From: a virus
Strand: one strand, 5' to 3'
Virus record (IMG/VR): IMGVR_UViG_3300042923_001459
Coordinates: 44,592 to 108,591 of that record
Length of the DNA stretch: 64,000 bases
The notes under the pieces are model-generated. The model had not been told where the DNA came from, searched no databases, and worked only from the letters and a program-made list of their open reading frames with translations. Below, one piece after another: positions 4,666 to 59,146 of the stretch. Both the position numbers and the translations under genes were made by a program. Numbering within the stretch: position 1 is the stretch's first letter; each line of letters opens with the position of its first letter.

Positions 4666-5409
4666 TCAAACGAGTTCTCTTTCAGTAATTATTTTATCAA
4701 TTTCTCTTTTAATCATAGCAAATACTTCGTCAACTGATTTTTGTTTGCCATTTTTCATTTGATCAATAACGATCCAGTTATCTCTAGTTTTTGCAAAGTC
4801 GAGATAAGTTTCTGATACATTAATTAGAAGTTGATTGTTATTTTCATGAATATCTTCTTTACCTTCTTGATACTCTCGTTTACCACGAGATTCAATTCGC
4901 TCGATAGAAATTGAAGGGTCAACATAAAGATAAAAATTGTAATCAGGCTTCACAACTTTAAGTTCATTGAACTCCATGTCTTCAATCCATCCAATGAATT
5001 CTTGTCTCTCTTCTTTTGATATTTTTTTACCAGCTGTAAAAAGATTAGAGTAAGTATATCTATCAGCCAATACAATATGACCATTTTCAATACTATTTTT
5101 TATTTCATCTCTTAATCTTGCTCTATCTGCAGCATAAGCAATACATATGAGTTCATCAGGGACGCTGTCAATACCACCATATTCGCCCTTGAGGTATGAT
5201 GCAATTACTTTTCCAATTGGACGTTCATATTCAGGAAAAGAAACAATGTGCACTGTATGACCAAGATTTTCAAGATACTTAGCTGTACTTTTAACATGTG
5301 TACCTTTACCCGCTCCATCAATTCCCTCGAATGTAAGAAGTAAGCCTTGTTCTAGACGTTTTTTGTTTTTAAAGAGATTGTAAATTTGTAGCTTACTCAT
5401 TGCTGCCAT
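4666..5409 (-). CDS. tmk: Thymidylate (dTMP) kinase
   Basis: FEGIDGAGKGT P-loop, SFP, LADRY motifs. Confidence 0.9.
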   Translation of the reverse strand: MAAMSKLQIYNLFKNKKRLEQGLLLTFEGIDGAGKGTHVKSTAKYLENLGHTVHIVSFPEYERPIGKVIASYLKGEYGGIDSVPDELICIAYAADRARLRDEIKNSIENGHIVLADRYTYSNLFTAGKKISKEERQEFIGWIEDMEFNELKVVKPDYNFYLYVDPSISIERIESRGKREYQEGKEDIHENNNQLLINVSETYLDFAKTRDNWIVIDQMKNGKQKSVDEVFAMIKREIDKIITERELV

Positions 5410-6572: not shown

Positions 6573-6986
6573 TTATTCAAAACCATCTTTTAATTTAGCA
6601 ATTCTTGCTATTTCTACAAAAAGCTTTTTAAATTCATCAAAATCATAGAAAGTATATCTAGCACTGTGTGTTGAAGAATCATGATTGAAATGCGAAGTTT
6701 TAAAATTGGATTTATCTAAATACGATATTAAAGTTCTGTGATCATGTGCATGTTTCATTAAGTAAATAGAAAAGACCAATTTATCTTCATAACAAAACAA
6801 TTCAAACTCAAATATTTTATTTACATTAATTCGTAGATAGGTTAGTGTTTCATCACTGTGAAGTGTCTTCATCGTTACTGGAGCTCCACCAGTTAATTCT
6901 GCCATTACAAGAAATGCGCTTAGAAAATCCTCAAATTCATCCAACATTACAATACTACTCTTTATATGCACCAACGAGTTTTTCAA
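6573..6986 (-). CDS. Hypothetical protein carrying the shared helix motif (start may be 6947)
   Basis: LDEFEDFLSAFLVMAELTG matches motif of the 22-29 kb family. Confidence 0.65.
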   Translation of the reverse strand: MKNSLVHIKSSIVMLDEFEDFLSAFLVMAELTGGAPVTMKTLHSDETLTYLRINVNKIFEFELFCYEDKLVFSIYLMKHAHDHRTLISYLDKSNFKTSHFNHDSSTHSARYTFYDFDEFKKLFVEIARIAKLKDGFE

Positions 6987-7689
6987 TTGCTTTTTTCCTC
7001 GCTTTCATAGATTCCAAATTATCTCTAAGCGTATCAAGCTTTCTTTGAGCCAAATTTACTTTATCTGGTTCAATTTCGTTATCAACGATAATTTTTTGAA
7101 TTTCAATTTCAACTTCTAACTTTGGAATACTTTTGGTTACGTCTTCTAATAAACCTTTTAAAATATAAATCTTTAATTCGTCCATGTTACTCACTTTTTC
7201 TTCGCCACCTTTTGGTAAATTACTTATTCTTTCAATAGTGCTGTTTTCAGAGTTGCGTTGAAACACATAGTGAGGTATTTTTTTAGCCTCATCTTTTTTT
7301 GGTTCAACTTTTTTCTTTTTTAACTCTTTTACAGGAACAACAATATCTTTTGTTTCTTCTTCTAAATCTAATTTTAGATTTATTTTTTCAATATCTAGAC
7401 TTTGTTCTTTAGCTATCACTCTTTCTAACCATTCATCATTGATTGGAGGAAGATCAAGCTCTGCAATAGGGGCATAAACTGTGTCTAGTGTTTTCAATTC
7501 TTCTTCGACGTTAAGTTCAACTTCCTTTTCAACAAATACTTCATCAACTGCAGATTCTTTTTCTGGCTGACTTTCTTCAATCGGAGCTTGTTGTATTGGC
7601 TGTGAGTCATTTATTAACTCAGATTCGCTCTGTTTCCTTGAAGAATTATTATTTAAACGTGGATTATAAGAATTTTTACCCTTGGCCAT
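6955..7689 (-). CDS. Hypothetical charged/coiled-coil protein
   Basis: 244 aa E/K-rich ORF, coupled to neighbours. Confidence 0.7.
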   Translation of the reverse strand: MAKGKNSYNPRLNNNSSRKQSESELINDSQPIQQAPIEESQPEKESAVDEVFVEKEVELNVEEELKTLDTVYAPIAELDLPPINDEWLERVIAKEQSLDIEKINLKLDLEEETKDIVVPVKELKKKKVEPKKDEAKKIPHYVFQRNSENSTIERISNLPKGGEEKVSNMDELKIYILKGLLEDVTKSIPKLEVEIEIQKIIVDNEIEPDKVNLAQRKLDTLRDNLESMKARKKAIEKLVGAYKE

Positions 7690-10836: not shown

Positions 10837-11598
10837 TCAATTATCTTGTAATACCCAAAACTTAAGTTGCTTGTTACCAAGTTTTAAGGCTTCTTGCGTA
10901 GTTGAGACGCATATGTCGACTCTGTATTTTCCTTTAATAGCTCCTCCGGTGTCTTGGGCAATTACCACACCGAATCCTTCTACATAGAACTTTGTACCGA
11001 GTTCCCAATAACGAGTATCTACCGCTATCGTCACTCCTGGTTGCGCTTTTGCACCAGAGGCAGTTTTGCCTGTGCATCCAACACATTTCGGAGTATAGAA
11101 TGAAGCATTAAAAACACCAGTGGGTTGGGTGTTTTCTATTTCATTGATGTTGTTGGTCTGGATAGGTTTCACTTTAGCCACATTTGAAGAATCAACAGAA
11201 AGATTCTTAAGTGTATTAGCTTGTTTCTCACTACCCAAGGCTATTGTTAGCCGTTTTTTTTCCAGGGCGTCACGGCGTTCCCTGTATTTTTTTGTTAAAT
11301 CCTCATTATCTACTGTTAATTGTTGTATACTTTGTTCTTGTAATGCGACCTTACTTTTTAAATCTTCAATTATCTGTTTATTAGCCGTAGATTCTTGCTT
11401 GATGATTTCAAACTGACCAACTACTTCATTCAACTGTCTCGATCTCTCTGTTAAGTCTTTGCCCATTACCCACATACTAAGTGAGGAAAACAGAATCAAC
11501 GCTGCACTGCCAATCGCAACGATATAAAATTTCTTTCGTGAAACTGGTAATGCATTTGGGTTTAATTGAGTTCTCCTATTGGCTGCCGGGTTTTTCAT
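10837..11598 (-). CDS. Membrane-anchored coiled-coil + 3D domain protein (cell-wall lytic transglycosylase-like)
   Basis: N-terminal TM, coiled coil, TASG..IAVD..LGT...AQDTGGAIKG.RVDI. Confidence 0.88.
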   Translation of the reverse strand: MKNPAANRRTQLNPNALPVSRKKFYIVAIGSAALILFSSLSMWVMGKDLTERSRQLNEVVGQFEIIKQESTANKQIIEDLKSKVALQEQSIQQLTVDNEDLTKKYRERRDALEKKRLTIALGSEKQANTLKNLSVDSSNVAKVKPIQTNNINEIENTQPTGVFNASFYTPKCVGCTGKTASGAKAQPGVTIAVDTRYWELGTKFYVEGFGVVIAQDTGGAIKGKYRVDICVSTTQEALKLGNKQLKFWVLQDN

Positions 11599-11950
11599 AC
11601 AGCACCTCCATAGGATGTTTGTGAATCATTTTTTATTTTATGATTATAAATGTCAAATATTAACTGCTAATGTCGAGACGTAAGTGTCTCTAGGATGTCC
11701 TCTAATTCACGTAGTGCATTGATATCAGTGATATCTATGAATCAATGGTTATTCACAGGGTGCATCTATAAATATAAGATCTATTATATAAGAATATAAA
11801 TAAAGAAATATAGAGAAAGATAAGAGAGAGAGGGAAGCAAGTTCCCTGTGCAATTAATGTTTTTACGTCTCGAATTCAGTCGTGTTACTATTTGATATTT
11901 GAACTTTAATAGGTTTAACCATGACTTATATTCTAGTTTTATCCTTGCAT

Positions 11951-12451
11951 CTACTTACCCTTAACTGCTCTCAACAAGTTTACGTAATCAAGAAAAGCTT
12001 TCAACTCTTTACCTTCAATTCTACTAACATTTAACTTGTTGTTCTTAAGAGGACCGCTATTTTGTATTTTGTGTATCAGATAAGAGTTTGGAAAAAAGCG
12101 ATACTCATAAATCCCAAACTTTTTAAAATCAACAAGAAATGCAACCCAAACTTTCTTACCTGTGTTTGCTTCTTTTTTTGCATAAGCTTCAACGTGACTC
12201 TTGTTTATAAGTAAACAATTTTCAGGTTCAATACCTGTATGCTGCATTGACCACATAAACTCAGATTCTAGATACTTACTGTCTACGTACATTTCATCGT
12301 ACACAAGTTCAATATCAATATCCTTCACATCTTCTTCGTTGTTGAGTTTTGATGGAACACCATTAAGATTTAATAACTCAACTAATAAATCTTCTTTGTC
12401 ATTGCCAATCTTTAATTTTTCTTCAAAGCTTCTACTATCTGATTGATACAA
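11951..12451 (-). CDS. Putative PD-(D/E)XK endonuclease-like protein
   Basis: G...E, DID...YVDSK spacing resembles PD-(D/E)XK core. Confidence 0.45.
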   Translation of the reverse strand: MYQSDSRSFEEKLKIGNDKEDLLVELLNLNGVPSKLNNEEDVKDIDIELVYDEMYVDSKYLESEFMWSMQHTGIEPENCLLINKSHVEAYAKKEANTGKKVWVAFLVDFKKFGIYEYRFFPNSYLIHKIQNSGPLKNNKLNVSRIEGKELKAFLDYVNLLRAVKGK

Positions 12452-12775: not shown

Positions 12776-13141
12776 TTATTTTTTTATATCCATAATTTTA
12801 TCAATCATTTCTTCAGAAACTGCATCAGTTATGTCAAGCTCAATCTCAACACCATTTTGCACAAATAGTTGTACAGCAATTGTTACGCAATTAGAACAAA
12901 TAAGGGGTTCATTTTTTTCACTTAAAGAAACTACTGGTTTTTCGTTAGTTCCAATAGTTCCACAAAATGAACACGAATGAAATGAACTTTGCAAACCTTC
13001 AAGTCCAGCAGTTCCTCCATATAGTGGTAAAATTTGTCCATCTTCAAATTCAACAAAAGTCATTTGTCCATCTTGTTTGATGTCCTTTACTGGTTGTTTC
13101 ATTAATATTGTAAGTTCTTTTATTCTTTCCTCATCTAACAT
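12776..13141 (-). CDS. ClpX-type C4 zinc-finger protein
   Basis: CSFCG-x16-ICSNCV matches the ClpX N-terminal zinc-binding domain; start MLDEE after GGAAGA. Confidence 0.7.
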   Translation of the reverse strand: MLDEERIKELTILMKQPVKDIKQDGQMTFVEFEDGQILPLYGGTAGLEGLQSSFHSCSFCGTIGTNEKPVVSLSEKNEPLICSNCVTIAVQLFVQNGVEIELDITDAVSEEMIDKIMDIKK

Positions 13142-13142
13142 A

Positions 13143-13412
13143 TCACATCTTCCTTCCAAGTATAGAATTTAACATTGAATCAACTTGGTTAGAACCATTT
13201 GAGTTCTTTAAAATGGTCTGTGTTACTGTTAATTCATTAAGCACTCTAGAAAGTTGAAGCATAATTGAACTAGCTTCTATTAGATTTTCAAACTTATAGT
13301 TCTTGTCATTTCTATTATCTTCCATAGAACACTTACGAGACAACAATTCTATTTGTTTTACTATGGCATTTATAGCTAAATCAATTTGATCTTGCTGCGA
13401 CTCCAAACTCAT
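13143..13412 (-). CDS. Hypothetical protein
   Basis: 89 aa helical ORF in operon. Confidence 0.65.
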   Translation of the reverse strand: MSLESQQDQIDLAINAIVKQIELLSRKCSMEDNRNDKNYKFENLIEASSIMLQLSRVLNELTVTQTILKNSNGSNQVDSMLNSILGRKM

Positions 13413-14200: not shown

Positions 14201-14497
14201 TTACTTCTTTTTCTTTTGTTTTTCTAATTCTTTAATTTGATCATCTGTCAGAGTCTTAAGTTGTTTCGTATCATCACCATCTATATCGGACTGATGTTTA
14301 ATGATTACTTTGTAACCTGCAGCGCCAAGCAATTGCTTTGCTAATTGTAGTGAAATTTCTGCGTCTTCATTTTTCAAACGAGAAATCCAAGACTTAGAAA
14401 CATCAGCTTTTTTGGCAAATTGAGTAACAGTAATACCGTTTTGATAGCAATAAGTTCTTACGATTCTTATAATATCTTTTGTGGTAGGTTGAATCAT
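14201..14497 (-). CDS. XRE/Cro-family HTH regulator
   Basis: ITVTQFAKKADVSKSWISRLKN HTH. Confidence 0.85.
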   Translation of the reverse strand: MIQPTTKDIIRIVRTYCYQNGITVTQFAKKADVSKSWISRLKNEDAEISLQLAKQLLGAAGYKVIIKHQSDIDGDDTKQLKTLTDDQIKELEKQKKKK

Positions 14498-14596
14498 GAA
14501 CTACAACTCCTTTTTTTATATAGATAAAATAATTGATTTGCTTAATAATAACAAAAAAAATCAAAAACCCTACACAACGTAGGGTTATACATATTG

Positions 14597-17152
14597 TTAT
14601 ACAACTGATTTGTTCTTCTGCCTAAAGTCTGTTAACTTCGGTAAGAGCTCGTTATACCATTTTTCCTCATCTTGATGATTATAATCTCTCTTAGTATTGT
14701 TGAGCGTAATTTCGGGGAACCAACCCATAGCAACAGCCTTGTTAAATGTATATTCTGCTACTGGGTTTATGAATGTTCTACCAAGTCTCCAATTTTGATA
14801 TTGAGAATTGTATTCTTCTGAAAATGTTTTATATAAGAGCATAGCAACTCCATTTTTTCTATATTGCTCTTGTACTTCAACATAATTAATGTAGATGTAT
14901 TCATGTTCAGGATAGATTTCATACTTCATATCTCCAAGCATTTCTCCATCTCTAAAGATCTCAATTTTACGTCCTCTATTATTAATTTCTTTTTTCTGAA
15001 CATCAATTGGACCAACTGCAACTTCGGATGCAAATTTACGCAATCTGTAATCATTACCTTTAGCCCAATATTCAGGACCTTTATACTGTTCTGGCAACTT
15101 ATTACGTAAGTCATTCCAAACTTCGTCTGGGTTTGTTTTAAGGCTTTTATTATATCGATCTCTCTTCACATACTTATCATCTATTGAAGTTTCATTTATC
15201 CAACCTAAACTTACAGCTTTTCTAAATGCATATTCAGCTATTGGATTAATATAGTATCTAGAAACCGGCCAATCACTAAAGTTAGAATTGTAGATTTCAC
15301 CAAACTTTTTGTAAAGTAGTTGTCCAACACCATAACTTCTATATTCTTCCTTTACTTGGACTTCATCTACGTGAATAATATTGCTGCCAGGTGGTAAATC
15401 CCTAAGACTTCTATTGTTTTCGTGAATATATTTAGGGTTTTCAACATTGTAAAAAGCTGAAAAATACATATTTCCAATATTAATACCATTAGATAATTTA
15501 GCGTTTATTGAATAGTCAACTTGTTTTTCGGCACCAACATAATCTCCATCTTCTTCTGACTCAGTATAAGATAGTACAATGTTTCTCATATCAATTTCTG
15601 ACAAATCAGCTAATTTAAATAGTTTTTTCAATCTAGAACTACCTCTATACATTGGAGGAAGTTTCTTTCTCAAATCCTTCCAAAGCGTTTTATCTTTTTT
15701 ATCATAATTGCGCTTTAATTTATCATCATTTAAAGCCCATCCAGAAATCCACCCTAATGAAATAGCTTTACGATAAGAATATTCAGCTATAGGGTTATGA
15801 AAATCTACAGAAACTGGGAGACGATCAAATTGTTGTTGATAAATTTCACCAAATTTCTGAAGAAGTAATTGACCAATACCAAGGCTTTGATATTGTTCAG
15901 TAACTTTAATTAAATCGATATGAACTTTATCTCTTCCTGCATAGGCACTATTTGTATCATAAACGTAAGCTGTAAATCTTATGCTTCCCACTTCTTCACC
16001 ATTAAGTTGTGCATAAACCATGTGGGTGTCCATTGTTAAGCCATTGTCATAAGTTGAACTACCAATAGAACCTCCATCTTCAAGTATTATGCCAGACCTA
16101 ATATCGGTCACGCTTAGATCTGAAGCTAGTTTACGTAAATCTTTTTTCATACTAGCCTCCGGCCCTCTAACATGTTCTGGAAGTTTTTGTCTTAAATCAT
16201 TCCAAAGCGCTTTATTTTTTGTACTATAGTCACGAATTATCTTTTCTTCAGAAAGAGCCATATCTGGAACCCAGCCAAGAGATACTGCTTTTCTAAAGGA
16301 ATATTCAGCAACAGGATTTACAAATTGTCTACCAACTGCCCAACCATTAAATTGTTCAGTGTACATCTCACCAAATTTTTTGTAAAGCATTTGGCCTACG
16401 CCAGCTCCTTCAAAATATTGTTGCACATACAAAAACGAAACATATAATTCTGGTTCAGTATAATCTTTAGCTTCTTCTTTTGGAACATACTTTGAAAAAT
16501 CCAAATAACCAATTTGACTTCCAGCGTACATAGCGGAAATTTCATAACTAGATCTAAGTGTTTGTCCCCAGTCTTTTTCTTCACTAGGACCAGAAACTTC
16601 AAATTGAATACCTTGTCGTAAGTCAATTTTTTCATCATCACTTATGGCAATTTTTTTCAATCTTGAAAATCTACTAGCATGTAAATTTTCTGGTAATTTT
16701 TGTTTTAAGTCATTCCATTGTTGCTCTTTTTTATCATCATAACTTCTAGTTGTTCTCTCTGGAGTATAAGCTTGATTTGGTACCCAACCTTGATCTACTG
16801 CTTTTTTAAAAGAATATTCAGCAATGGGACTCTCAAAGTGTCTTTCAACTTCCCAGTCCATAAAGTTTTGGCTATACACTTCACCAAATTTTTTGTAAAG
16901 CATACCACTAATTCCAGTTCCACGATACTCAGATTCAACTTTGATATAAGCAAGGTATAGAATATCTTCCTCGTTGCCATTTTCATCTAGTTGCGAAACT
17001 TGATTGAAATCTAAAGCGCCAATTTCGCCTCCATTGTACATAGCTTCAATTCTATGCATAGTCATGTAGTATCCATCTTCAGGATCACTATCACTACCAA
17101 CATTAGGTGAGTAATCAATTCTAACTTTTCTAATGTCAAACTGATCAGACAT
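14597..17152 (-). CDS. Protein with five tandem GNAT-like acetyltransferase domains
   Basis: Five ~165 aa repeats with V..EYR..G(I/V)G..LYKKFGE.Y and NP(I/V)AEY.F.KA. Confidence 0.8.
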   Translation of the reverse strand: MSDQFDIRKVRIDYSPNVGSDSDPEDGYYMTMHRIEAMYNGGEIGALDFNQVSQLDENGNEEDILYLAYIKVESEYRGTGISGMLYKKFGEVYSQNFMDWEVERHFESPIAEYSFKKAVDQGWVPNQAYTPERTTRSYDDKKEQQWNDLKQKLPENLHASRFSRLKKIAISDDEKIDLRQGIQFEVSGPSEEKDWGQTLRSSYEISAMYAGSQIGYLDFSKYVPKEEAKDYTEPELYVSFLYVQQYFEGAGVGQMLYKKFGEMYTEQFNGWAVGRQFVNPVAEYSFRKAVSLGWVPDMALSEEKIIRDYSTKNKALWNDLRQKLPEHVRGPEASMKKDLRKLASDLSVTDIRSGIILEDGGSIGSSTYDNGLTMDTHMVYAQLNGEEVGSIRFTAYVYDTNSAYAGRDKVHIDLIKVTEQYQSLGIGQLLLQKFGEIYQQQFDRLPVSVDFHNPIAEYSYRKAISLGWISGWALNDDKLKRNYDKKDKTLWKDLRKKLPPMYRGSSRLKKLFKLADLSEIDMRNIVLSYTESEEDGDYVGAEKQVDYSINAKLSNGINIGNMYFSAFYNVENPKYIHENNRSLRDLPPGSNIIHVDEVQVKEEYRSYGVGQLLYKKFGEIYNSNFSDWPVSRYYINPIAEYAFRKAVSLGWINETSIDDKYVKRDRYNKSLKTNPDEVWNDLRNKLPEQYKGPEYWAKGNDYRLRKFASEVAVGPIDVQKKEINNRGRKIEIFRDGEMLGDMKYEIYPEHEYIYINYVEVQEQYRKNGVAMLLYKTFSEEYNSQYQNWRLGRTFINPVAEYTFNKAVAMGWFPEITLNNTKRDYNHQDEEKWYNELLPKLTDFRQKNKSVV

Positions 17153-17171
17153 TTATTACACCCTCTTTTGA

Positions 17172-17660
17172 TTAAGAATATTTAAGTTTTCTTTTTAGTC
17201 TTTTAGCACCTCTATATTGTTCAGGCACCTTTTCTCTTAAATCTTGCCATTGTTGTTTTTGTTGATCGTCGTAATTTCTATTTACGTTGTTTTCATCTAA
17301 GGCTGAAGATGGTATCAATCCACCAGAAATTAAATTTCTAAATGCTAATTCAAATTCTGGATCGTGAAAGTTTAAAATTACCTTCCAACCCGTGTAATTA
17401 GCTTCAAATTCCTTACCAAATTCATCCATTAACATTTCTTCTAAATCATAATCTCTGTATTTTTCACTAATAAGACATTCATCTACGGATAAAACACCTT
17501 TAGATGCTTCTGTAAATTCAACGTGACCAACTTCTTTGCCGTTATAGATAGACGAAATTCTATGATCTTTTGAACCAAAAGTACCTTGATGATCAAAATA
17601 AATTTGAGCTTGAAACTGTTCTATGTTTGACGGTGCTGCAACCTTTCTAAGTTTACTCAT
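17172..17660 (-). CDS. Single degenerate GNAT-like domain protein
   Basis: Start reassigned to MSKLRKVA; homologous to neighbours but motif A reads YRDYDLEE. Confidence 0.7.
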   Translation of the reverse strand: MSKLRKVAAPSNIEQFQAQIYFDHQGTFGSKDHRISSIYNGKEVGHVEFTEASKGVLSVDECLISEKYRDYDLEEMLMDEFGKEFEANYTGWKVILNFHDPEFELAFRNLISGGLIPSSALDENNVNRNYDDQQKQQWQDLREKVPEQYRGAKRLKRKLKYS

Positions 17661-19815
17661 TTTTATCACCCTTATCCCTATAATCTTTTCTTTCAATACT
17701 TTTCTTAAACTTCTTTTTCTCTTTTGCTGGTAACCAATCAAATAAATCTTTAGCAATTTGTTTTTCATGTTCATCATATTGACGCGCTATTAAATCATCA
17801 TTATATGCAGTTTCAGGGATATTTCCCTTATCGACTTCTTCTTTAAATACATATTCTGCTATAGGGTTTGCAAAAACTTGAGCAACTGGCCAATCCATAA
17901 AATCTTGCTTGTAAATTTCTCCAAACTTCTCATATAATTTCTTGCCAATTCCATAACCTCTGTACTCACTATTCACAAGAACGTTGTTTACATATAACAT
18001 TTCATCATAATGCTTGTTTTCAAGAGAAGTATGAACATCTTTAGCTGTTACATTATGAAATTCTGAAAAGTGCATGTAACCAATTTGAGAACCATAATAA
18101 TCACAATAAATTTCGTGATCAACTACATGATCTGCTCCATTCTTGTTTTCTTCTCTTGGGATATTTTGAACATCAATTTCTATGTGATTCCATTCAATGT
18201 CTGGTTTATCATCTTTTTTTTCTTCACCATCATATGAGTCAGAAACATAATTAACTGCATTTTCTTTTTTGAGCAATCTTTTTGTCAATTTAGCCCAAGT
18301 CTCAGGGCCCTTTAAATTGTCTGGAAGTTTATTTCTTAAATCGGTTATTGTTTGTGAATCATAATTTTTATAATCCCTAGTGATCATTGGTTCAGTTAAT
18401 GCTGATTCTGGCACAAAACCTTTTGAAACTGAATTTCTAAAAGCGTATTCAGCTACTGGATTCATAAAATGCCTTTCAACAGGCCAACCATTAAACTTTT
18501 CACTATAAATTTCTCCAAATTTTTTGTAAATTTCATACGCTAGACCTTGATTTTGATATTTTGGATCAACCTCAAGTTGAATAATTTCAATATATTTTCC
18601 ATTAGTATCAGCAGTGAAGGCTAAGAATCCAGCGTGATCACCATTTACAAGCAAAGTAATGTCATTTGTTGAACTAGTTCCCCAATCTTCAAAGAAATAG
18701 GTTGTTTCAATATTTTGTTCCTCTGATTTTCTAATCATACGAAGTCTTTTAATTTTTGACCATGTTTCAGGACCTTGAACATGTTCTGGTAACTTATTGC
18801 GTAAATCTTTTGCTAGATTTCTTTCAGTATCGGTATATACTCTTGCAATGTCATCTTCTTGTAATGCTTCTTGGGGAACCCAACCTAATCCAACAGCTTT
18901 TCTAAATGAATATTCTGCTATAGGGTTAATAAAAAAACGTTTAACTTTTGTGCCCATATATTTTTGTGAGTAAATATTTCCAAATTCTTTATACAATAAT
19001 TGCCCAATTCCTAAATTTCGATATTTATCATCAACGTCTACTGAATCAATTTCAATATGATTATCGCTTCCGACTATTTTAAAGTCCATTTCTCCAACTT
19101 TTTGTCCATTCAATTTAGCGGTAATGTAATTATGATAATTCCAATTGGAGAATTCAAATTGTATATTTCTTAAATCAACTTTTTCTTCTTCAGCTGTTTT
19201 TAGAAGTTTAATTTTTTTCAGTCTTGATTGAATTTCTGGACCACGATATTGTTCTGGCAATTTTTGTCTTAAATCTTGCCAAAGTTGTGTTCTATTATCG
19301 TTTTCATCTAGTGGTTTATTGTATCCTCTATTGATATATTGTTCAGTTAACGCATTTTCACTAATTAATCCATTTGCAACCGCTTTTCTAAATGAATATT
19401 CTGCGACTGGATTTACAAAGTATCTAGCAACAGGCCAACCGTTGAATTGTTCATTGTAGATTTTTCCAAACTCTTCATATATCTTATAGCCAATTCCAGC
19501 CTGTCTATATTCTTCGTTTACTTCAACATTGTTTACATATAAAGCACGATCAACAATATTGTAGTCATCTGGACCTGGCTCTCTTTCCATCAATATCTCA
19601 TATGGAACGTTCTCAACATCTATGAAATCCATGTATCCAACTTGTGTTCCGCTTATTGTAGTAATTGTAATTTTATGTTGATTCATTGAGGTGACACCAA
19701 ATTCTGATTGAGCATCTGCGAATTCATCAGAAACTCTCACCATATGATTCACTGCTAGATTACGTAAATCATCACCTGTATCTGATGCTTTTTTTTCCAT
19801 CATCCTATAGTCCAT
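17653..19815 (-). CDS. Protein with four tandem GNAT-like acetyltransferase domains
   Basis: YRQAGIG, YRNLGIG, YQNQGLA, YRGYGIG motif-A copies in four repeats. Confidence 0.8.
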   Translation of the reverse strand: MDYRMMEKKASDTGDDLRNLAVNHMVRVSDEFADAQSEFGVTSMNQHKITITTISGTQVGYMDFIDVENVPYEILMEREPGPDDYNIVDRALYVNNVEVNEEYRQAGIGYKIYEEFGKIYNEQFNGWPVARYFVNPVAEYSFRKAVANGLISENALTEQYINRGYNKPLDENDNRTQLWQDLRQKLPEQYRGPEIQSRLKKIKLLKTAEEEKVDLRNIQFEFSNWNYHNYITAKLNGQKVGEMDFKIVGSDNHIEIDSVDVDDKYRNLGIGQLLYKEFGNIYSQKYMGTKVKRFFINPIAEYSFRKAVGLGWVPQEALQEDDIARVYTDTERNLAKDLRNKLPEHVQGPETWSKIKRLRMIRKSEEQNIETTYFFEDWGTSSTNDITLLVNGDHAGFLAFTADTNGKYIEIIQLEVDPKYQNQGLAYEIYKKFGEIYSEKFNGWPVERHFMNPVAEYAFRNSVSKGFVPESALTEPMITRDYKNYDSQTITDLRNKLPDNLKGPETWAKLTKRLLKKENAVNYVSDSYDGEEKKDDKPDIEWNHIEIDVQNIPREENKNGADHVVDHEIYCDYYGSQIGYMHFSEFHNVTAKDVHTSLENKHYDEMLYVNNVLVNSEYRGYGIGKKLYEKFGEIYKQDFMDWPVAQVFANPIAEYVFKEEVDKGNIPETAYNDDLIARQYDEHEKQIAKDLFDWLPAKEKKKFKKSIERKDYRDKGDKNE

Positions 19816-20394
19816 TGTTCCTCCGCCTTTTTAAAGTTTTGGCCCCGCGAGTTTGAGACCCTGAAGTCTGAGCCCACATCCATTAGTCTTATTCTATATA
19901 CTTTTTCTTTATTTCTAAATTCTATTTATTTTAGCTTTTTTCCACAATTCACCCTTTTAGCCTTGATGCACTCCACGCGAGCGAGCTGAAAGCGAAGCGA
20001 GAGGCCGGAGGCCTGGGGTATTTTGAGTCTCGGGACTCGCGATAGAAGAAAGAGTAGAAAGACAGCTTTATTGTCTCCCTTAAGGTTACATGTTTATTAT
20101 ACAAAGTTCTGATCGAGACAGTAAAAATGGCCGCTTTCGCGGCCAAAAGTTTATTTTTTCTTGTTGTAAAAAAATTGTGTCGTTGAAATAATTCCACCAA
20201 AGCAAAAAGATAAAACAAGCAATGGCTCAATTTGTAAAACGCTGCCTAGAACACAAACAGTAGCTACGGCGCTAAAAGCGCTAAATGAATCAAATCCTTG
20301 CAGCAAACCGGATAATTTGAGCATTTTCAATATCCCCTTCTAAGGTTCTTTATAAATTCTATACAGAAAAGCATATTTTTTTATTACATATTTT

Positions 20395-20740
20395 AAAAAA
20401 AGACCAATAGAACTTAACAGGCATAATCGGGTCTATAGATAAAACTGAAAACTTTACTTCAGCTATCTATAGAAAAACTAATTGATCTATCTATAGATAA
20501 AATGAAAAGTATTCTATAGACATAATAGTTAAAGCCTGAATAGTTCTATCGGTCTTTTTGTTCTTTCTATCTATAGGTTAAAACGAGCTATCTATAGATA
20601 AAGGAGCATAGTCTATTCTATAGATAAAATTGTTTGATCTATCTATAGAATCTATCTATAGTAGAAAATTTATCTATTCTGATTTACTATCTAATAATTC
20701 CTTAAGTTGTGTAGGAAGTATCTTATGGCTCCATAGTTCT
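20395..20740. repeat. Cluster of (AT)CTATAG palindromic repeats with an inverted repeat
   Basis: CTATAG at about 20433, 20467, 20491, 20514, 20571, 20593, 20618, 20643, 20656, 20738; arms AAAAAGACCAATAGAACT / AGTTCTATCGGTCTTTTT. Confidence 0.75.
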
Positions 20741-21247: not shown

Positions 21248-21880
21248 TTATTGGATTACCCTGCGAGCGTTTACAAATTTATTTCTCCAGTACGAACCTG
21301 AAGCGAAAGTAATGTAATTGATTTTGGCTGTAGGATTATTTGTATGAAGCATTATATCCTTGTCAATATACATTCCTACGTGGTTGATTACTCCATCACC
21401 ATTTGTGTCAAAAAATAGTAAATCTCCCGTACGTAATTCATCAAGCTCTACTACTTGACCATAAACTGCTTGACGACGACTATCCCATGGGAGTTGTATT
21501 CCGATAGCTTTATCAAAACACCATTGCATTAGATCAGAACAATCGAAATCATTGTCGTTTGTTCTGCTTGAGCCATAAACATAAGGAGTGTTGATAATAT
21601 TTCCATCAGCATCTCTTCTATTCATGTAAAACTCAATTTTAGCTATTACTAATTTTGCTTTTTCTAACCATTCCGGAATAAATTCCTCCACGTATTGTGA
21701 TAATGAAGTAATGTAACCAACCGTTCCGTCCATCAATTTAGCATAATAGAAAGTTTTTCCTTCTACGTTGCTTAAAACTTGTAATTCTGTGCCTGCAGGG
21801 AGTGTTTTAATAACATTATTCGCAACTACTGGGTCTTTTCTAAAGTTGACTGAAGTTTTTGTGCGTATAAATTTTTCCAT
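21248..21880 (-). CDS. SH3b + NlpC/P60 cell-wall peptidase
   Basis: VNFRKDP..GYIT SH3b; PYVYG..FDCSD, GDLLFF, HVGMY, MLH. Confidence 0.9.
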   Translation of the reverse strand: MEKFIRTKTSVNFRKDPVVANNVIKTLPAGTELQVLSNVEGKTFYYAKLMDGTVGYITSLSQYVEEFIPEWLEKAKLVIAKIEFYMNRRDADGNIINTPYVYGSSRTNDNDFDCSDLMQWCFDKAIGIQLPWDSRRQAVYGQVVELDELRTGDLLFFDTNGDGVINHVGMYIDKDIMLHTNNPTAKINYITFASGSYWRNKFVNARRVIQ

Positions 21881-21980: not shown

Positions 21981-22463
21981 TTACCAATTTATTTTTTTTA
22001 ATTGTTTAAGTTTATCAAAATGTTTTTCTATGTCTGAAAGTTTTACATCCTTCTTTACGATAATTCCATTTATCTTTAAAAAGGCTGTTCTTTCTCCATA
22101 GAGCGGAAATTCTTCATAAGCTTCAAATTCTATAGCAAACGACTGATCAAATATTACAATTACTGTTTCGCGAAATTCACTTTCATTATTATTAAATAAA
22201 AATTCCACTAAACCGGGAACCATTTTATCCAACTCATCCTTAACGCTGTATTCACACCATGTTGTTTCATAAGCTAATTGAAAGTTCATTTTATTAAGAG
22301 CTATCAGTATTTCTTTGATATTCTCTGGGTGCGGTTCTGATTTTGTTCTAAAGTACGAAACACGTCCATATAACGGGTAATATTTGAAATCATAGCTTTT
22401 TATGAATTCTTCTCCGCTAGTTCTTATTAACTTTAACATCTTTATCCTACCTTTCATGGTCAT
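21981..22463 (-). CDS. Hypothetical protein
   Basis: Last gene of tightly coupled operon; probable start MLKLIRTS. Confidence 0.65.
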   Translation of the reverse strand: MTMKGRIKMLKLIRTSGEEFIKSYDFKYYPLYGRVSYFRTKSEPHPENIKEILIALNKMNFQLAYETTWCEYSVKDELDKMVPGLVEFLFNNNESEFRETVIVIFDQSFAIEFEAYEEFPLYGERTAFLKINGIIVKKDVKLSDIEKHFDKLKQLKKINW

Positions 22464-58741: not shown

Positions 58742-59146
58742 TTAGCTTTTGGAGAGAATAGCGATAGTGTGGAACACCCCATCACCGAACTCAAAGTCTA
58801 TCTTTACTACTGACGCAACTGAATAGCCTAACTCTTTAGAGATACTCTCTAGTTCATCTGTCATTGTAGCAATGAACTCAGCTCGTTTAAACGTCCCCGC
58901 TACTATTTTGCATGTAGCATCATCGACAGGATACCCAACGTGTTGTTCGAATAGAGATCTATCCATTACGCAATGGATTACAATGACATCGTTTTTTTCA
59001 TCTACCGCTGCACTACGGATAGTTTCAAGTAAATTGTCTTCAAAGAATTGAAACACACTTTCATCAACACTGATGTCATCGTTATTGATAACCAATAGGT
59101 TTGTGATCTTAGTTTCTTTTACCGCTCGTTTCATTAGTCTCTTCAT
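58742..59146 (-). CDS. Hypothetical protein with N-terminal MKRLMKRA motif
   Basis: Lacks cassette promoter; basic leader like the GNAT linkers. Confidence 0.7.
   Translation of the reverse strand: MKRLMKRAVKETKITNLLVINNDDISVDESVFQFFEDNLLETIRSAAVDEKNDVIVIHCVMDRSLFEQHVGYPVDDATCKIVAGTFKRAEFIATMTDELESISKELGYSVASVVKIDFEFGDGVFHTIAILSKS

Follow-up and report, generated by a model that had tools for sequence, protein, structure and literature searches.

IPI-III and Alt of bacteriophage T4 carry a capsid-targeting sequence that is removed by the prohead protease gp21, and herpesvirus assemblin, whose fold is shared by prohead proteases, cuts at φ-x-A↓S. The locus described here, three genes (A, B and C) in a 64,000-nucleotide stretch of viral DNA (the window), resembles T4 (capsid-targeting sequence reviewed in PMC9026906) in that a short N-terminal leader stands on unrelated proteins, that the leader-end motif recurs in the protease and in head-core proteins and that the cargo would include host-modifying enzymes (in T4 the ADP-ribosyltransferase Alt). 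The two leaders have no sequence similarity (MKTYQEFIAE with L/I-x-E in T4 versus [L/M]-x-K-x-A here), and the tag here also occurs internally, between up to five enzyme domains, packaging and cutting being predicted in our case. The sites here resemble those of assemblin in having Ala at P1 and Ser or another small polar residue at P1', and in being placed both around the protease core and in proteins of scaffold type, but they have Lys at P3 and Leu or Met at P5, the cut position being a guess.

Polyvalent proteins, described from phages and conjugative elements (Iyer et al. 2017, PMC5512222; for jumbo phages PMC7824862), are also multidomain (GNAT, ART, ParB-like and other conflict domains) and are believed to enter the cell together with the DNA and in some cases to be processed; their GNATs belong to a RimI-like clade. 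They bring together domains of different kinds, in many cases including a peptidase, and adjoin structural genes, whereas the arrays in the window are homotypic, made from one private GNAT family with a repeated leader, have no peptidase domain and are surrounded by non-structural genes. Minimal GNATs of the YjdJ/Acetyltransf_CG type (5i0c, 1xmt; PF14542) share with the window domains a ~90-residue core without helices α1-α2, to which the latter add a strand and helix (W-x-DLR-x-KLPE), a G-P-E-x-W tail, variable hairpin insertions and a tandem arrangement. Finally, Rac, a GNAT of phiKMV-like phages, is cited in PMC7824862 as acetylating the α subunit of RNA polymerase; the likeness, drawn at superfamily level, lies in a phage-encoded GNAT whose own role is host-protein modification for takeover, but Rac is a single-domain early protein.

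The A-B-C operon and its GNAT domains

A, B and C form one small minus-strand operon (Table 1) in a megaphage related to the giant Bacillus phage G, and encode 4+1+5 homologous domains that align at 21-45% pairwise identity. Gene B most likely starts at the ATG at 17660 (MSKLRKVA, 162 aa), which overlaps the stop codon of gene A as ATGAGTAA; a start at 17777 was dropped in its favour. An XRE-type HTH neighbour follows GNAT genes also in phage G (gp679) and at locus L013.

Table 1. Features of the A-B-C locus (window coordinates).
Feature	Position	Strand	Remarks	Basis
HTH_3 (XRE-type) gene	14201..14497	-	directly downstream of GNAT genes	
Terminator-like hairpin and T-run	14566..14586	-	just past gene C	consensus scan only
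Gene C	14597..17152	-	851 aa, five GNAT domains	ORF; Pfam; domain cuts
Domain C5	14600-15055	-		
Joint C4/C5	15029..15052	-	DYRLRKFA	
Domain C4	15056-15637	-		
Joint C3/C4	15608..15637	-	SRLKKLFKLA	
Domain C3	15638-16150	-		
Joint C2/C3	16124..16150	-	MKKDLRKLA	
Domain C2	16151-16666	-		
Joint C1/C2	16646..16672	-	RFSRLKKIA	
Domain C1	16667-17152	-		
Gene B	17172..17660	-	162 aa, one GNAT-like domain with dead motif A	
Gene B basic C-terminal tail	17175..17207	-	AKRLKRKLKYS; resembles a joint cut off by the stop codon	
Gene B leader	17637..17660	-	MSKLRKVA	
Gene A	17653..19815	-	720 aa, four GNAT domains	ORF; Pfam; alignment
Domain A4	17656-18291	-		domain cuts; alignment
Joint A3/A4	18262..18294	-	AKLTKRLLKKE; variant	
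Domain A3	18292-18756	-		domain cuts; alignment
Joint A2/A3	18724..18759	-	SKIKRLRMIRKS; variant, K-S at end	
Domain A2	18757-19227	-		domain cuts; alignment
Joint A1/A2	19189..19227	-	SRLKKIKLLKTAE	
Domain A1	19228-19815	-		domain cuts; alignment
Gene A N-terminus	19786..19800	-	MEKKA(S), weak leader	
Sigma-70-type promoter-like site	20096..20125	-	TTTACT-18-TATAAT, ~280 nt upstream of gene A	consensus scan only
Terminator-like hairpin	20128-20145		promoter-like site directly after	consensus scan only

Gene A matches Pfam Acetyltransf_1 at 77 bits (cut-off 20.7); the Pfam matches of the array lie above the gathering score, and PF14542 passes its cut-off on A and C. The AlphaFold model of A2 has a pLDDT of 88 and a pTM of 0.81, and a structure search with the GNAT domain model (Foldseek) matched GCN5, PCAF and YjdJ. 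The best 50 rows returned by VIA-align were all GNATs (Z 8-10), YjdJ (5i0c) aligning over 89/89 residues (rmsd 2.5, Z 8.4), and RimI is the nearest named subfamily, with a score under its cut-off. These profile matches, the model and the structure searches give the window domains a GNAT fold of the minimal YjdJ type, extended by a C-terminal tail specific to the family, and all ten are old, divergent paralogues of a minimal, RimI-leaning acetyltransferase domain. Motif A (R/Q-x-x-G-x-G/A) is intact in nine of the ten domains and degenerate in B (YRDYDLEE). The NP(I/V)AEY.FRKA ... DLR.KLPE tail occurs in every domain, B having DPEFEL for NP(I/V)AEY. The N-terminal part (37-77 residues) is 22% identical versus 42% for the C-terminal part (91-98 residues). 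B itself belongs to an orthogroup (SH-aLRT 99) with P0008, domain 2 of P0034 and P0043, and the middle domain of phage G gp678, which follows an A4-type domain, likewise has a dead motif; judged by its sequence, B is a conserved pseudoenzyme.

This is a very small family, with 112 matches in 1.84 billion representatives; those whose source could be traced belong to phage G or to large phage-like contigs from metagenomes. An old orthogroup of its own was resolved for each of eight window domains (A1, A4, B and C1-C5), with SH-aLRT values of 95-99 for A4, B, C2, C3, C4 and C5, 93 for C1 and 89 for A1. These orthogroups also occur as single genes and are fused in other orders in other phages (C1-C4-C3, C1-C2-C5, C1-C5, A1-A4, A4-B, A4-x-ART-C1). 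For example, one phage G ORF (gp678) holds A4-(dead-motif domain)-C5, P0034 fuses A4- and B-type domains in one ORF, and P0026 has an ART-like domain inserted behind DFRLVKKA (followed by NS), a domain type that is free-standing behind MKRLIRKA (followed by S) in seven phage G paralogues. The earlier note, made from the letters of the window, had described 4+1+5 GNAT-like domains with motif A and a conserved tail, variable N-terminal strands, a single-domain member with degenerate motif A and, overall, a diversified acetyltransferase set. All of this stood: of the fold predictions it had suggested, that of A2 gave a GNAT fold and that of C1-C2 two folded domains, the orthogroups show old paralogues, and four phages or more have kept the dead member.

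Joint peptides within and beyond the array

The best consensus of the joints is [L/M]-x-K-x-A (LKKIA, LRKLA, LFKLA, LRKFA, LLKTA, LRKVA and MEKKA). The claim that a basic motif marks the joints and most N-termini holds at the joints and at gene B, with two window joints being off-consensus variants (RLRMIRKS and RLLKKE), and fails at the start of gene C (MSDQFDIRKV), where the stretch matched in the earlier note is the D-L/I-R cap found ahead of strand 1 in each domain. The array holds 12 copies of D[LIM]R[KRNQ] versus one in the remaining 28,152 aa of the contig, and L[RK]K.A occurs four times in the array on a complete reading of A, B and C (twice on the automatic gene call, which lacks B and shortens the array), three times in the head core and not at all in the 23,578 aa outside both. 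Residues 1-13 of the A2 model have a pLDDT below 50, and in a two-domain model of C1-C2 (pTM 0.62) both domains fold while linker residues 160-175 are coil (pLDDT 31-48). Accordingly modelled, the joints are predicted to be disordered and the domains to be arranged like beads on a string.

About 17 of 32 single-domain relatives open with MKRLIKK, MSRLKKLA, MKKRLIKKS or the like, including the B-type P0008 (MSRLKKLA) and P0043 (MKKISKLRKIA); about half have no leader, and the joints of P0024 keep only K-V-A-N and K-V-S-S. In phage G the leader opens 29 of 727 proteins, spread over the whole genome, among them proteins with PARP/ART-like, ParB_N, deoxyribosyltransferase-like and SLOG domains, types that match the described repertoire of injected polyvalent proteins (PMC5512222, PMC7824862). 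Of two leaders proposed earlier on unrelated window genes, MKRLMKRA (58742..59146) is a fair match and MLKLIRTS (21981..22463) a poor one; the broader claim that unrelated genes share the junction motif is borne out, with its strongest examples in phage G and in the head module of this contig, both beyond the window.

In the part of the contig that contains the head genes, 9 of 68 genes carry the leader, versus 3 of 135 elsewhere (Fisher p=0.003). The leader opens small proteins around the portal and protease genes and is conserved on phage G gp5, gp9, gp10, gp13, gp17 and gp20, even where the protein is otherwise 32% identical. A motif scan revealed K-φ-A-[SNT] at 2.45 per 1000 aa in the head core versus 0.39-0.61 elsewhere in the contig, and at 2.49 versus 0.36 in phage G (p=3e-7), a roughly seven-fold head-core enrichment in both phages. 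Four such sites flank the protease core (which matches phrog_18299), one lies at portal residue 58, and a DLRK variant is present in a gp8-like head-module protein. This is the look that would be expected of a maturation-cleavage motif. No K-φ-A site was found in the major capsid protein, which is reportedly processed (Gonzalez et al. 2020), and some of the scaffold sites have no counterpart in phage G.

Candidate roles of the joints

Since the joint peptide also opens unrelated phage proteins and crowds head-assembly proteins, a load-and-cut tag is plausible, and we put at roughly 0.4 the probability that the tag loads the A-B-C proteins into the head and is then cut. Each joint would be a retained copy of the N-terminal leader (MKRLIKK[AS], MSRLKKIA) set on many unrelated proteins, and genes would fuse and split freely at leaders. 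The leader would direct its protein into the prohead during assembly, and the maturation protease of the head would cut at or near K-x-A, so that A and C would be polyprotein precursors of up to ten separate ~150-residue acetyltransferases. The GNAT fold, the paralogue set, the conserved dead member, the shared motif and the head-core enrichment of K-φ-A-[SNT] fit this interpretation, which the earlier note had advanced in outline. Counting against it are the missing N-terminal leader of gene C and about half of the single-domain relatives, the P0024 joints and two off-consensus window joints, the position of the operon in a non-structural region ~15 kb away from the head module and behind a host-type promoter-like site (consensus scan), the K-φ-A-free major capsid protein and unconserved scaffold sites, and the Lys-rich N-termini that low-GC genomes have anyway.

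It is quite possible, instead, that A and C are uncut chains of four to five tethered acetyltransferases, made after infection and acting in the cytoplasm on host or phage proteins or small molecules, with joints unrelated to head loading and recognised otherwise, for example by phage ClpX/ClpXP or a ClpX-zinc-finger protein, for localisation or for timed turnover. The non-structural operon and its host-type promoter-like site suit such chains, as do the ClpX and ClpP encoded by phage G (PMC12484599), a ClpX-type zinc-finger protein two genes downstream (E=4e-4, below cut-off), the genome-wide occurrence of leaders on ~4% of phage G proteins, giant multi-GNAT proteins elsewhere (1000-3300 aa) that show no sign of such tags, and tandem GNATs known to be active uncut (Eis, MshD; 2wpw at Z 9.8 in VIA-align). 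However, uncut chains leave unaccounted for the seven-fold concentration of K-φ-A-[SNT] in the head core, its flanking of the protease core in two phages and the leader kept by small portal-adjacent proteins that diverge elsewhere. A chain that is cut in any case would most easily tolerate the free joining and splitting of units, and the C1-C2 model has no packing between domains.

We consider it doubtful that the joints are functionless flexible basic spacers, alike among themselves by descent of a duplicated unit and similar to N-termini by Lys-rich, AT-rich coding bias. The predicted disorder of the linkers, the use of the commonest AT-rich codons and the little that a scan limited to ATG starts gave outside the array are consistent with spacers, and each domain repeats DLR-K-L in its C-terminal helix and at its N-cap, from which slippage or unequal crossing-over could spread the motif. 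Yet the domains are only 21-45% identical while K-x-[AS] is kept in 22 of 32 joints across the family. All seven [LMF]xKxA sites in the 1,733 residues of A, B and C lie at N-termini or joints and none inside domain cores, and the RLKKIA hexamer occurs four times in the contig against ~0.003 expected (a rough estimate from residue frequencies). The core motif, moreover, is nine times commoner at residues 2-8 than internally in both genomes (the contig and phage G), and the leader is conserved in an orthologue pair only 32% identical. Least probable are GNAT toxins or resistance enzymes that acetylate aminoacyl-tRNA (as TacT and AtaT), antibiotics or polyamines with the HTH gene as antitoxin or regulator: three phages have an XRE-type HTH gene after the GNAT genes (with weak, below-cut-off matches to HipB/HigA-like antitoxins) and the fold matches include streptothricin and aminoglycoside acetyltransferases, but no subfamily stands out in the best 50 VIA-align rows, the α1-α2 region of such enzymes is absent from the window domain model, PHROGs and Pfam give generic GNAT matches only on the window genes, a terminator-like hairpin separates the HTH gene, and ten paralogues including a pseudoenzyme are unlike a two-gene toxin-antitoxin pair.

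If the joints are tags for head loading and cutting, the model for what follows is T4, whose Alt ADP-ribosylates RNA polymerase. The released acetyltransferases would exit the capsid together with the DNA and, soon after infection begins, acetylate different proteins of the host, the target of each being set by its variable N-terminal sheet and hairpins.

Architecture and fold of the GNAT genes

Three minus-strand ORFs fill positions 14597-19815 of the window and encode proteins of 720 aa (A), 162 aa (B) and 851 aa (C). The ribosome-binding site of A is strong, while B and C each have one of their own; the best start of B is the ATG at 17660, which overlaps the stop of A (ATGAGTAA). Consensus scans revealed a terminator-like hairpin 3' of C as well as a terminator and a host-type promoter-like site ~300 nt upstream of A, and judged by these scans A-B-C looks like one operon. 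Read-through joining A, B and C, considered because a TAA suppressor tRNA has been reported for phage G (a giant Bacillus phage), was excluded, as all three genes lie in different frames. The gap of ~850 nt upstream of A (19816-20673) contains no convincing ORF, and neither a tRNA nor a credible Rfam family was found in it; a G-rich stretch lies immediately before the A start, with two terminator-like hairpins further upstream. The neighbours of the array are an HTH gene, genes of unknown function and an NlpC/P60 gene, a non-structural setting, with over 15 kb between the array and the head module.

Coordinates of the GNAT genes, their neighbours and related features (L001, phage G; L013, another phage locus; L017 and L018, same contig outside the window; P numbers, protein relatives)
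Feature	Location	Strand	Remark
GNAT gene A	window 17653-19815	-	domains A1-A4
GNAT gene B	window 17172-17660	-	single domain
GNAT gene C	window 14597-17152	-	domains C1-C5
SH3_3 + NlpC/P60 cell-wall hydrolase gene	window 21248-21880	-	upstream of array
ClpX-type C4 zinc-finger match, 127 aa	window 12776-13159	-	E=4e-4, under cut-off; two genes downstream of array
XRE-type HTH gene	window 14201-14497	-	directly after GNAT genes
XRE-type HTH gene	L001:9581-9877		directly after GNAT genes
XRE-type HTH gene	L013:7577-7924		directly after GNAT genes
Head-module protease	L017:12915-13814	-
Head-module portal	L018:2616-4598	-
Other head-module leader genes	L018:379-687, 4737-5390, 6748-7426, 11215-12339	-
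Leader + HGTS paralogues, phage G	JN638751.1 35181-36314, 81748-82587, 163172-163849, 178671-179204, 245994-246467, 401815-402312, 446709-447356
Eighth HGTS copy, phage G	JN638751.1 402421-402885		without leader
Single-domain GNAT frame	L014:5908-6420	+
Giant multi-GNAT proteins	P0055 (1848 aa), P0074 (3303 aa), P0070 (2422 aa), P0087 (988 aa)		distant profile matches

Anchoring on NP(I/V)AEY and KLPE, we cut the proteins into 4+1+5 domain units with pairwise identities of 21-45% in an alignment of all ten; identity is 22% in the segment ahead of strand 4, which has 37-77 residues, and 42% over the 91-98 residues from strand 4 up to KLPE. ORFs, anchors and alignment thus agree with the earlier note, which had described ten homologous domains with a variable N-terminal part, and its assignment of these domains to the GNAT fold is borne out by Pfam, a structural model and structure searches. 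PF00583 (Acetyltransf_1) scored 77.1 bits for A and 59 bits for C versus a gathering cut-off of 20.7, and both proteins also exceeded the cut-offs of PF13508, PF13673 and PF14542 (Acetyltransf_7, _10 and _CG); B by itself had no Pfam match, yet it can be aligned with the other nine domains. The AlphaFold model of A2, computed with the ten domains as alignment, reached pLDDT 88 and pTM 0.81 (residues 1-13, SRLKKIKLLKTAE, below pLDDT 50) and runs in the order four strands, helix, strand, helix, short strand, helix. Foldseek with this model retrieved GCN5, PCAF and YjdJ at E ~1e-4, and the top 50 matches of an independent structural search were all GNATs (Z 8-10). YjdJ (5i0c, 89 residues) was fully covered in the structural alignment and, like YjdJ, the array domains have no helices α1-α2; sequence and model together point to a minimal GNAT without α1-α2, plus a family-specific strand-helix tail. 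No subfamily is prominent among the GNAT matches and PHROGs returned generic acetyltransferase families only. The best NCBIfam match, RimI (TIGR01575), gave 42.9 and 34.8 bits and did not reach the equivalog cut-off of 86.4, and RimI is no more than the nearest named subfamily.

Motif A (Q/R-x-x-G-x-G/A, the pyrophosphate-binding loop) is intact in 9 of the 10 domains. In B, where the earlier note had already seen a degenerate motif, it reads R-D-Y-D-L-E-E, a replacement shared with the B orthologues, and NPIAEY has become DPEFEL. Since a dead motif of this type is kept in four phages, B is predicted to be a conserved pseudoenzyme. A D-L-R triplet occurs at the strand-1 cap and in the last helix of every array domain.

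Source phage and history of the domain family

The window covers bases 44592-108591 of an IMG/VR virus contig of 108,591 bp. By CheckV this contig is 22% complete, and megablast found no near-identical DNA among deposited phages. At the protein level the window matches best with Bacillus phage G, a Donellivirus of 497 kb and to our knowledge the sole cultivated megaphage, two thirds of whose genes have no known function. Its GNAT-array protein gp678 shows 38% identity, and an HTH gene comes after it, as in the window; because of this likeness and this shared neighbour, the contig is assigned as a fragment of a phage-G-like megaphage. The synteny of GNAT genes followed by an XRE-type HTH gene is conserved in three phages. 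Our literature search found no paper that mentions gp678; gp678 and the head-module gene products go unnamed in the main text of PMC12484599, and PMC10052503 contains nothing on cleavage in phage G.

Among 5.8 billion proteins, a word-indexed search picked out 17 relatives whose length is similar and 10 that are longer. HMMER, run on 1.84 billion representatives, returned 112 at E<=1e-3 (31 of these <1e-30), and IMG/VR contained three loci, one of them phage G. Many close relatives lie on large metagenome contigs of up to 476 kb. Since giant proteins from metagenomes, each containing 3-7 GNAT cores, are among the weaker HMMER matches, homotypic GNAT arrays exist elsewhere too. One single-domain GNAT frame (at locus L014) lacks an ATG, GTG or TTG start; there AAAGAGGT is followed by ATT a few bases downstream, and the frame has a probable ATT start or is a dead gene.

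In a tree of 89 domains from 53 proteins, 8 window domains each fall into their own orthogroup common to other phages (SH-aLRT 95-99 for A4, B, C2, C3, C4 and C5, 93 for C1 and 89 for A1), while A2 groups loosely with single-domain relatives (SH-aLRT 88) and A3 has no supported partner. Elsewhere these orthogroups occur in the orders C1-C4-C3, C1-C2-C5, C1-C5, C2-C5, A1-A4, A4-B and A4-x-ART-C1 and also as single genes; gp678 strings A4, a dead-motif domain and C5 in one ORF, the middle domain having no resolved placement in the tree. Because the orthogroups recur in other orders and as single genes, the ten paralogues predate these phages, with fusion and fission occurring at the joints.

A basic leader at joints, N-termini and in the head module

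The three proteins contain 7 matches to [L/M]-x-K-x-A, every one of them at an N-terminus or in a joint (the basic linker between domains), and two joints carry variants of it. The earlier note had described RL(K/R)K-x-A linkers: their position at joints and N-termini stood, but [L/M]-x-K-x-A is the better consensus. Among joints of the family, K-x-[AS] is found in 22 of 32 and L-R/K-K-x-A in 13 of 32, and a leader, meaning a basic N-terminal tag such as MKRLIKK, MSRLKKLA or MKKRLIKKS, opens ~17 of the 32 single-domain relatives, the others starting directly at the D-L-R cap. D-L-R-K mini-repeats also occur in runs in the leaders, joints and tails of relatives; the C-terminal tails of P0025, P0032 and P0035 and the leaders of P0015 and P0016 contain 4-7 D-(L/M)-R-(K/R) mini-repeats, spaced 9-20 residues and outside the domains. 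In a model of C1-C2 (pTM 0.62) both domains fold and the joint is coil (pLDDT 31-48); the model describes beads on a string, although its mutual placement of the two domains is not confident enough to tell this from the packed pseudo-dimers of Eis, MshD and 2wpw. Internal translation starts at the joints were excluded, the DNA of seven joints having no consistent Shine-Dalgarno sequence with start codon.

ATG-only longest-ORF scans had made the motif appear nearly private to the array, a false negative since several head-module genes use TTG/GTG starts, and the leader count was repeated with an RBS-aware gene call. Small proteins beside the portal, protease and capsid genes start with MSRLKKIA, METKTRLKKIA, M..SRLRKLKKS, MKRLMAKSA, MKDKGRLKKS, MSRIKKF, MTKNTRLKKIA and MSFFKRLAK, and several of these leader-bearing genes have a TTG or GTG start. 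By the RBS-aware call, 9 of the 68 genes to the left of the window have the leader, against 3 of the remaining 135 (p=0.003). Across the whole phage G genome a strict leader begins 29 of 727 called proteins, including ParB_N, deoxyribosyltransferase-like and SLOG proteins, and 7 of 203 contig proteins carry it; in both genomes the core motif is 9 times commoner at residues 2-8 than internally. Phage G gp5, gp9, gp10, gp13, gp17 and gp20 keep the leader with their contig orthologues, gp17 even though its remainder is only 32% identical. Seven strict-leader paralogues of phage G join the leader to a (L/F)(Y/F)HGTS domain with weak PARP and Tpt1 matches, probably an ADP-ribosyltransferase-like fold; in the array relative P0026 this domain is inserted between GNAT domains (residues ~390-590), behind a DFRLVKKA|NS joint. 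Because the leader stands on head-module and phage G proteins and the HGTS domain lies behind both leader and joint, we infer that the joints are copies of a genome-wide N-terminal leader.

These counts accord with the remark of the earlier note that the motif also begins unrelated genes; of its example ORFs, that at 21981..22439 has no similarity to phage G gp675 and that at 58742..59146 no match in phage G. K-φ-A-[SNT] is enriched in the head core of both phages, five- to seven-fold in the contig and 2.49 per 1000 aa versus 0.36 elsewhere in phage G (p=3e-7). K-φ-A sites lie on the flanks of the protease core (four) and at residue 58 of the portal (one), the capsid protein has none, and a gp8-like head-module protein carries a DLRK variant. 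K-φ-A-[SNT] is a candidate for the code at which the head maturation protease cleaves; a complex prediction of this protease with the C2/C3 joint scored 0.00, which without control runs gives no verdict.

Readings of the leader and their meaning

T4 has a capsid-targeting sequence and gp21, and assemblin-type proteases cut after Ala. The present case resembles T4-type capsid targeting in two respects: the same short leader stands on several unrelated phage G and contig proteins, and the leader-end motif recurs in the protease and other head-core proteins. On the basis of these analogues we favour, with a probability of roughly 0.4, the reading that the leader is an address-and-cut tag and that the arrays are polyprotein precursors of injected, predicted acetyltransferases. 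With such a tag, fusion and fission would be neutral, matching the observed shuffling. A tentative extension has the [L/M]-x-K-x-A code load some thirty enzymes into the capsid, the arrays giving rise to up to ten different injected acetyltransferases plus the pseudoenzyme; because the protease would cut the units apart anyway, genes would be free to fuse or split at the tag, a cassette system for injected effectors. In its repertoire the leader-bearing set matches injected polyvalent proteins (PMC5512222, PMC7824862). However, polyvalent proteins (Iyer et al. 2017) combine several unlike domains, whereas the window proteins are GNAT only, have no peptidase domain by Pfam and are not encoded beside structural genes; one relative, P0026, has an ART/Tpt1-like domain in addition to its GNATs.

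Many family members without a leader, a capsid protein without a site and a non-structural operon behind a host-type promoter-like site would all argue against the tag. A serious though somewhat doubtful competitor is that the arrays stay uncut in the cytoplasm as multi-headed enzymes, their tag being recognised for another purpose, for example by ClpX: both ClpX and ClpP are phage G products (PMC12484599), and a link between the basic leaders and the ClpX-type zinc-finger protein of the window is conceivable. It is improbable that the joints are functionless spacers. Toxin or resistance GNATs, to which the weak antitoxin-like (HipB/HigA) matches of the adjoining XRE-type HTH gene, all under cut-offs, would point, are least credible.

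Taken separately, GNAT domains, enzymes injected by phages and leader tags are already known; new is their combination, a phage-private minimal GNAT family of ten old paralogues strung together by retained leaders, as well as a leader motif whose enrichment lies in the head-core proteins of a megaphage that can be cultivated. Even should the tag reading fail, the array stands as a clear example of a phage-private family of acetyltransferases, old and diversified, in which a pseudoenzyme is conserved. If the tag is real, a five-residue motif would pick candidate injected proteins of phage G, namely GNATs, ARTs and ParB-like and SLOG-like enzymes. It would also predict at which sequences the head protease of this phage cuts, and explain the easy fusion and splitting of genes; the arrays would then be a phage case of a homotypic enzyme polyprotein, and the leader would be at hand as a tag to bring foreign proteins into a very large capsid.
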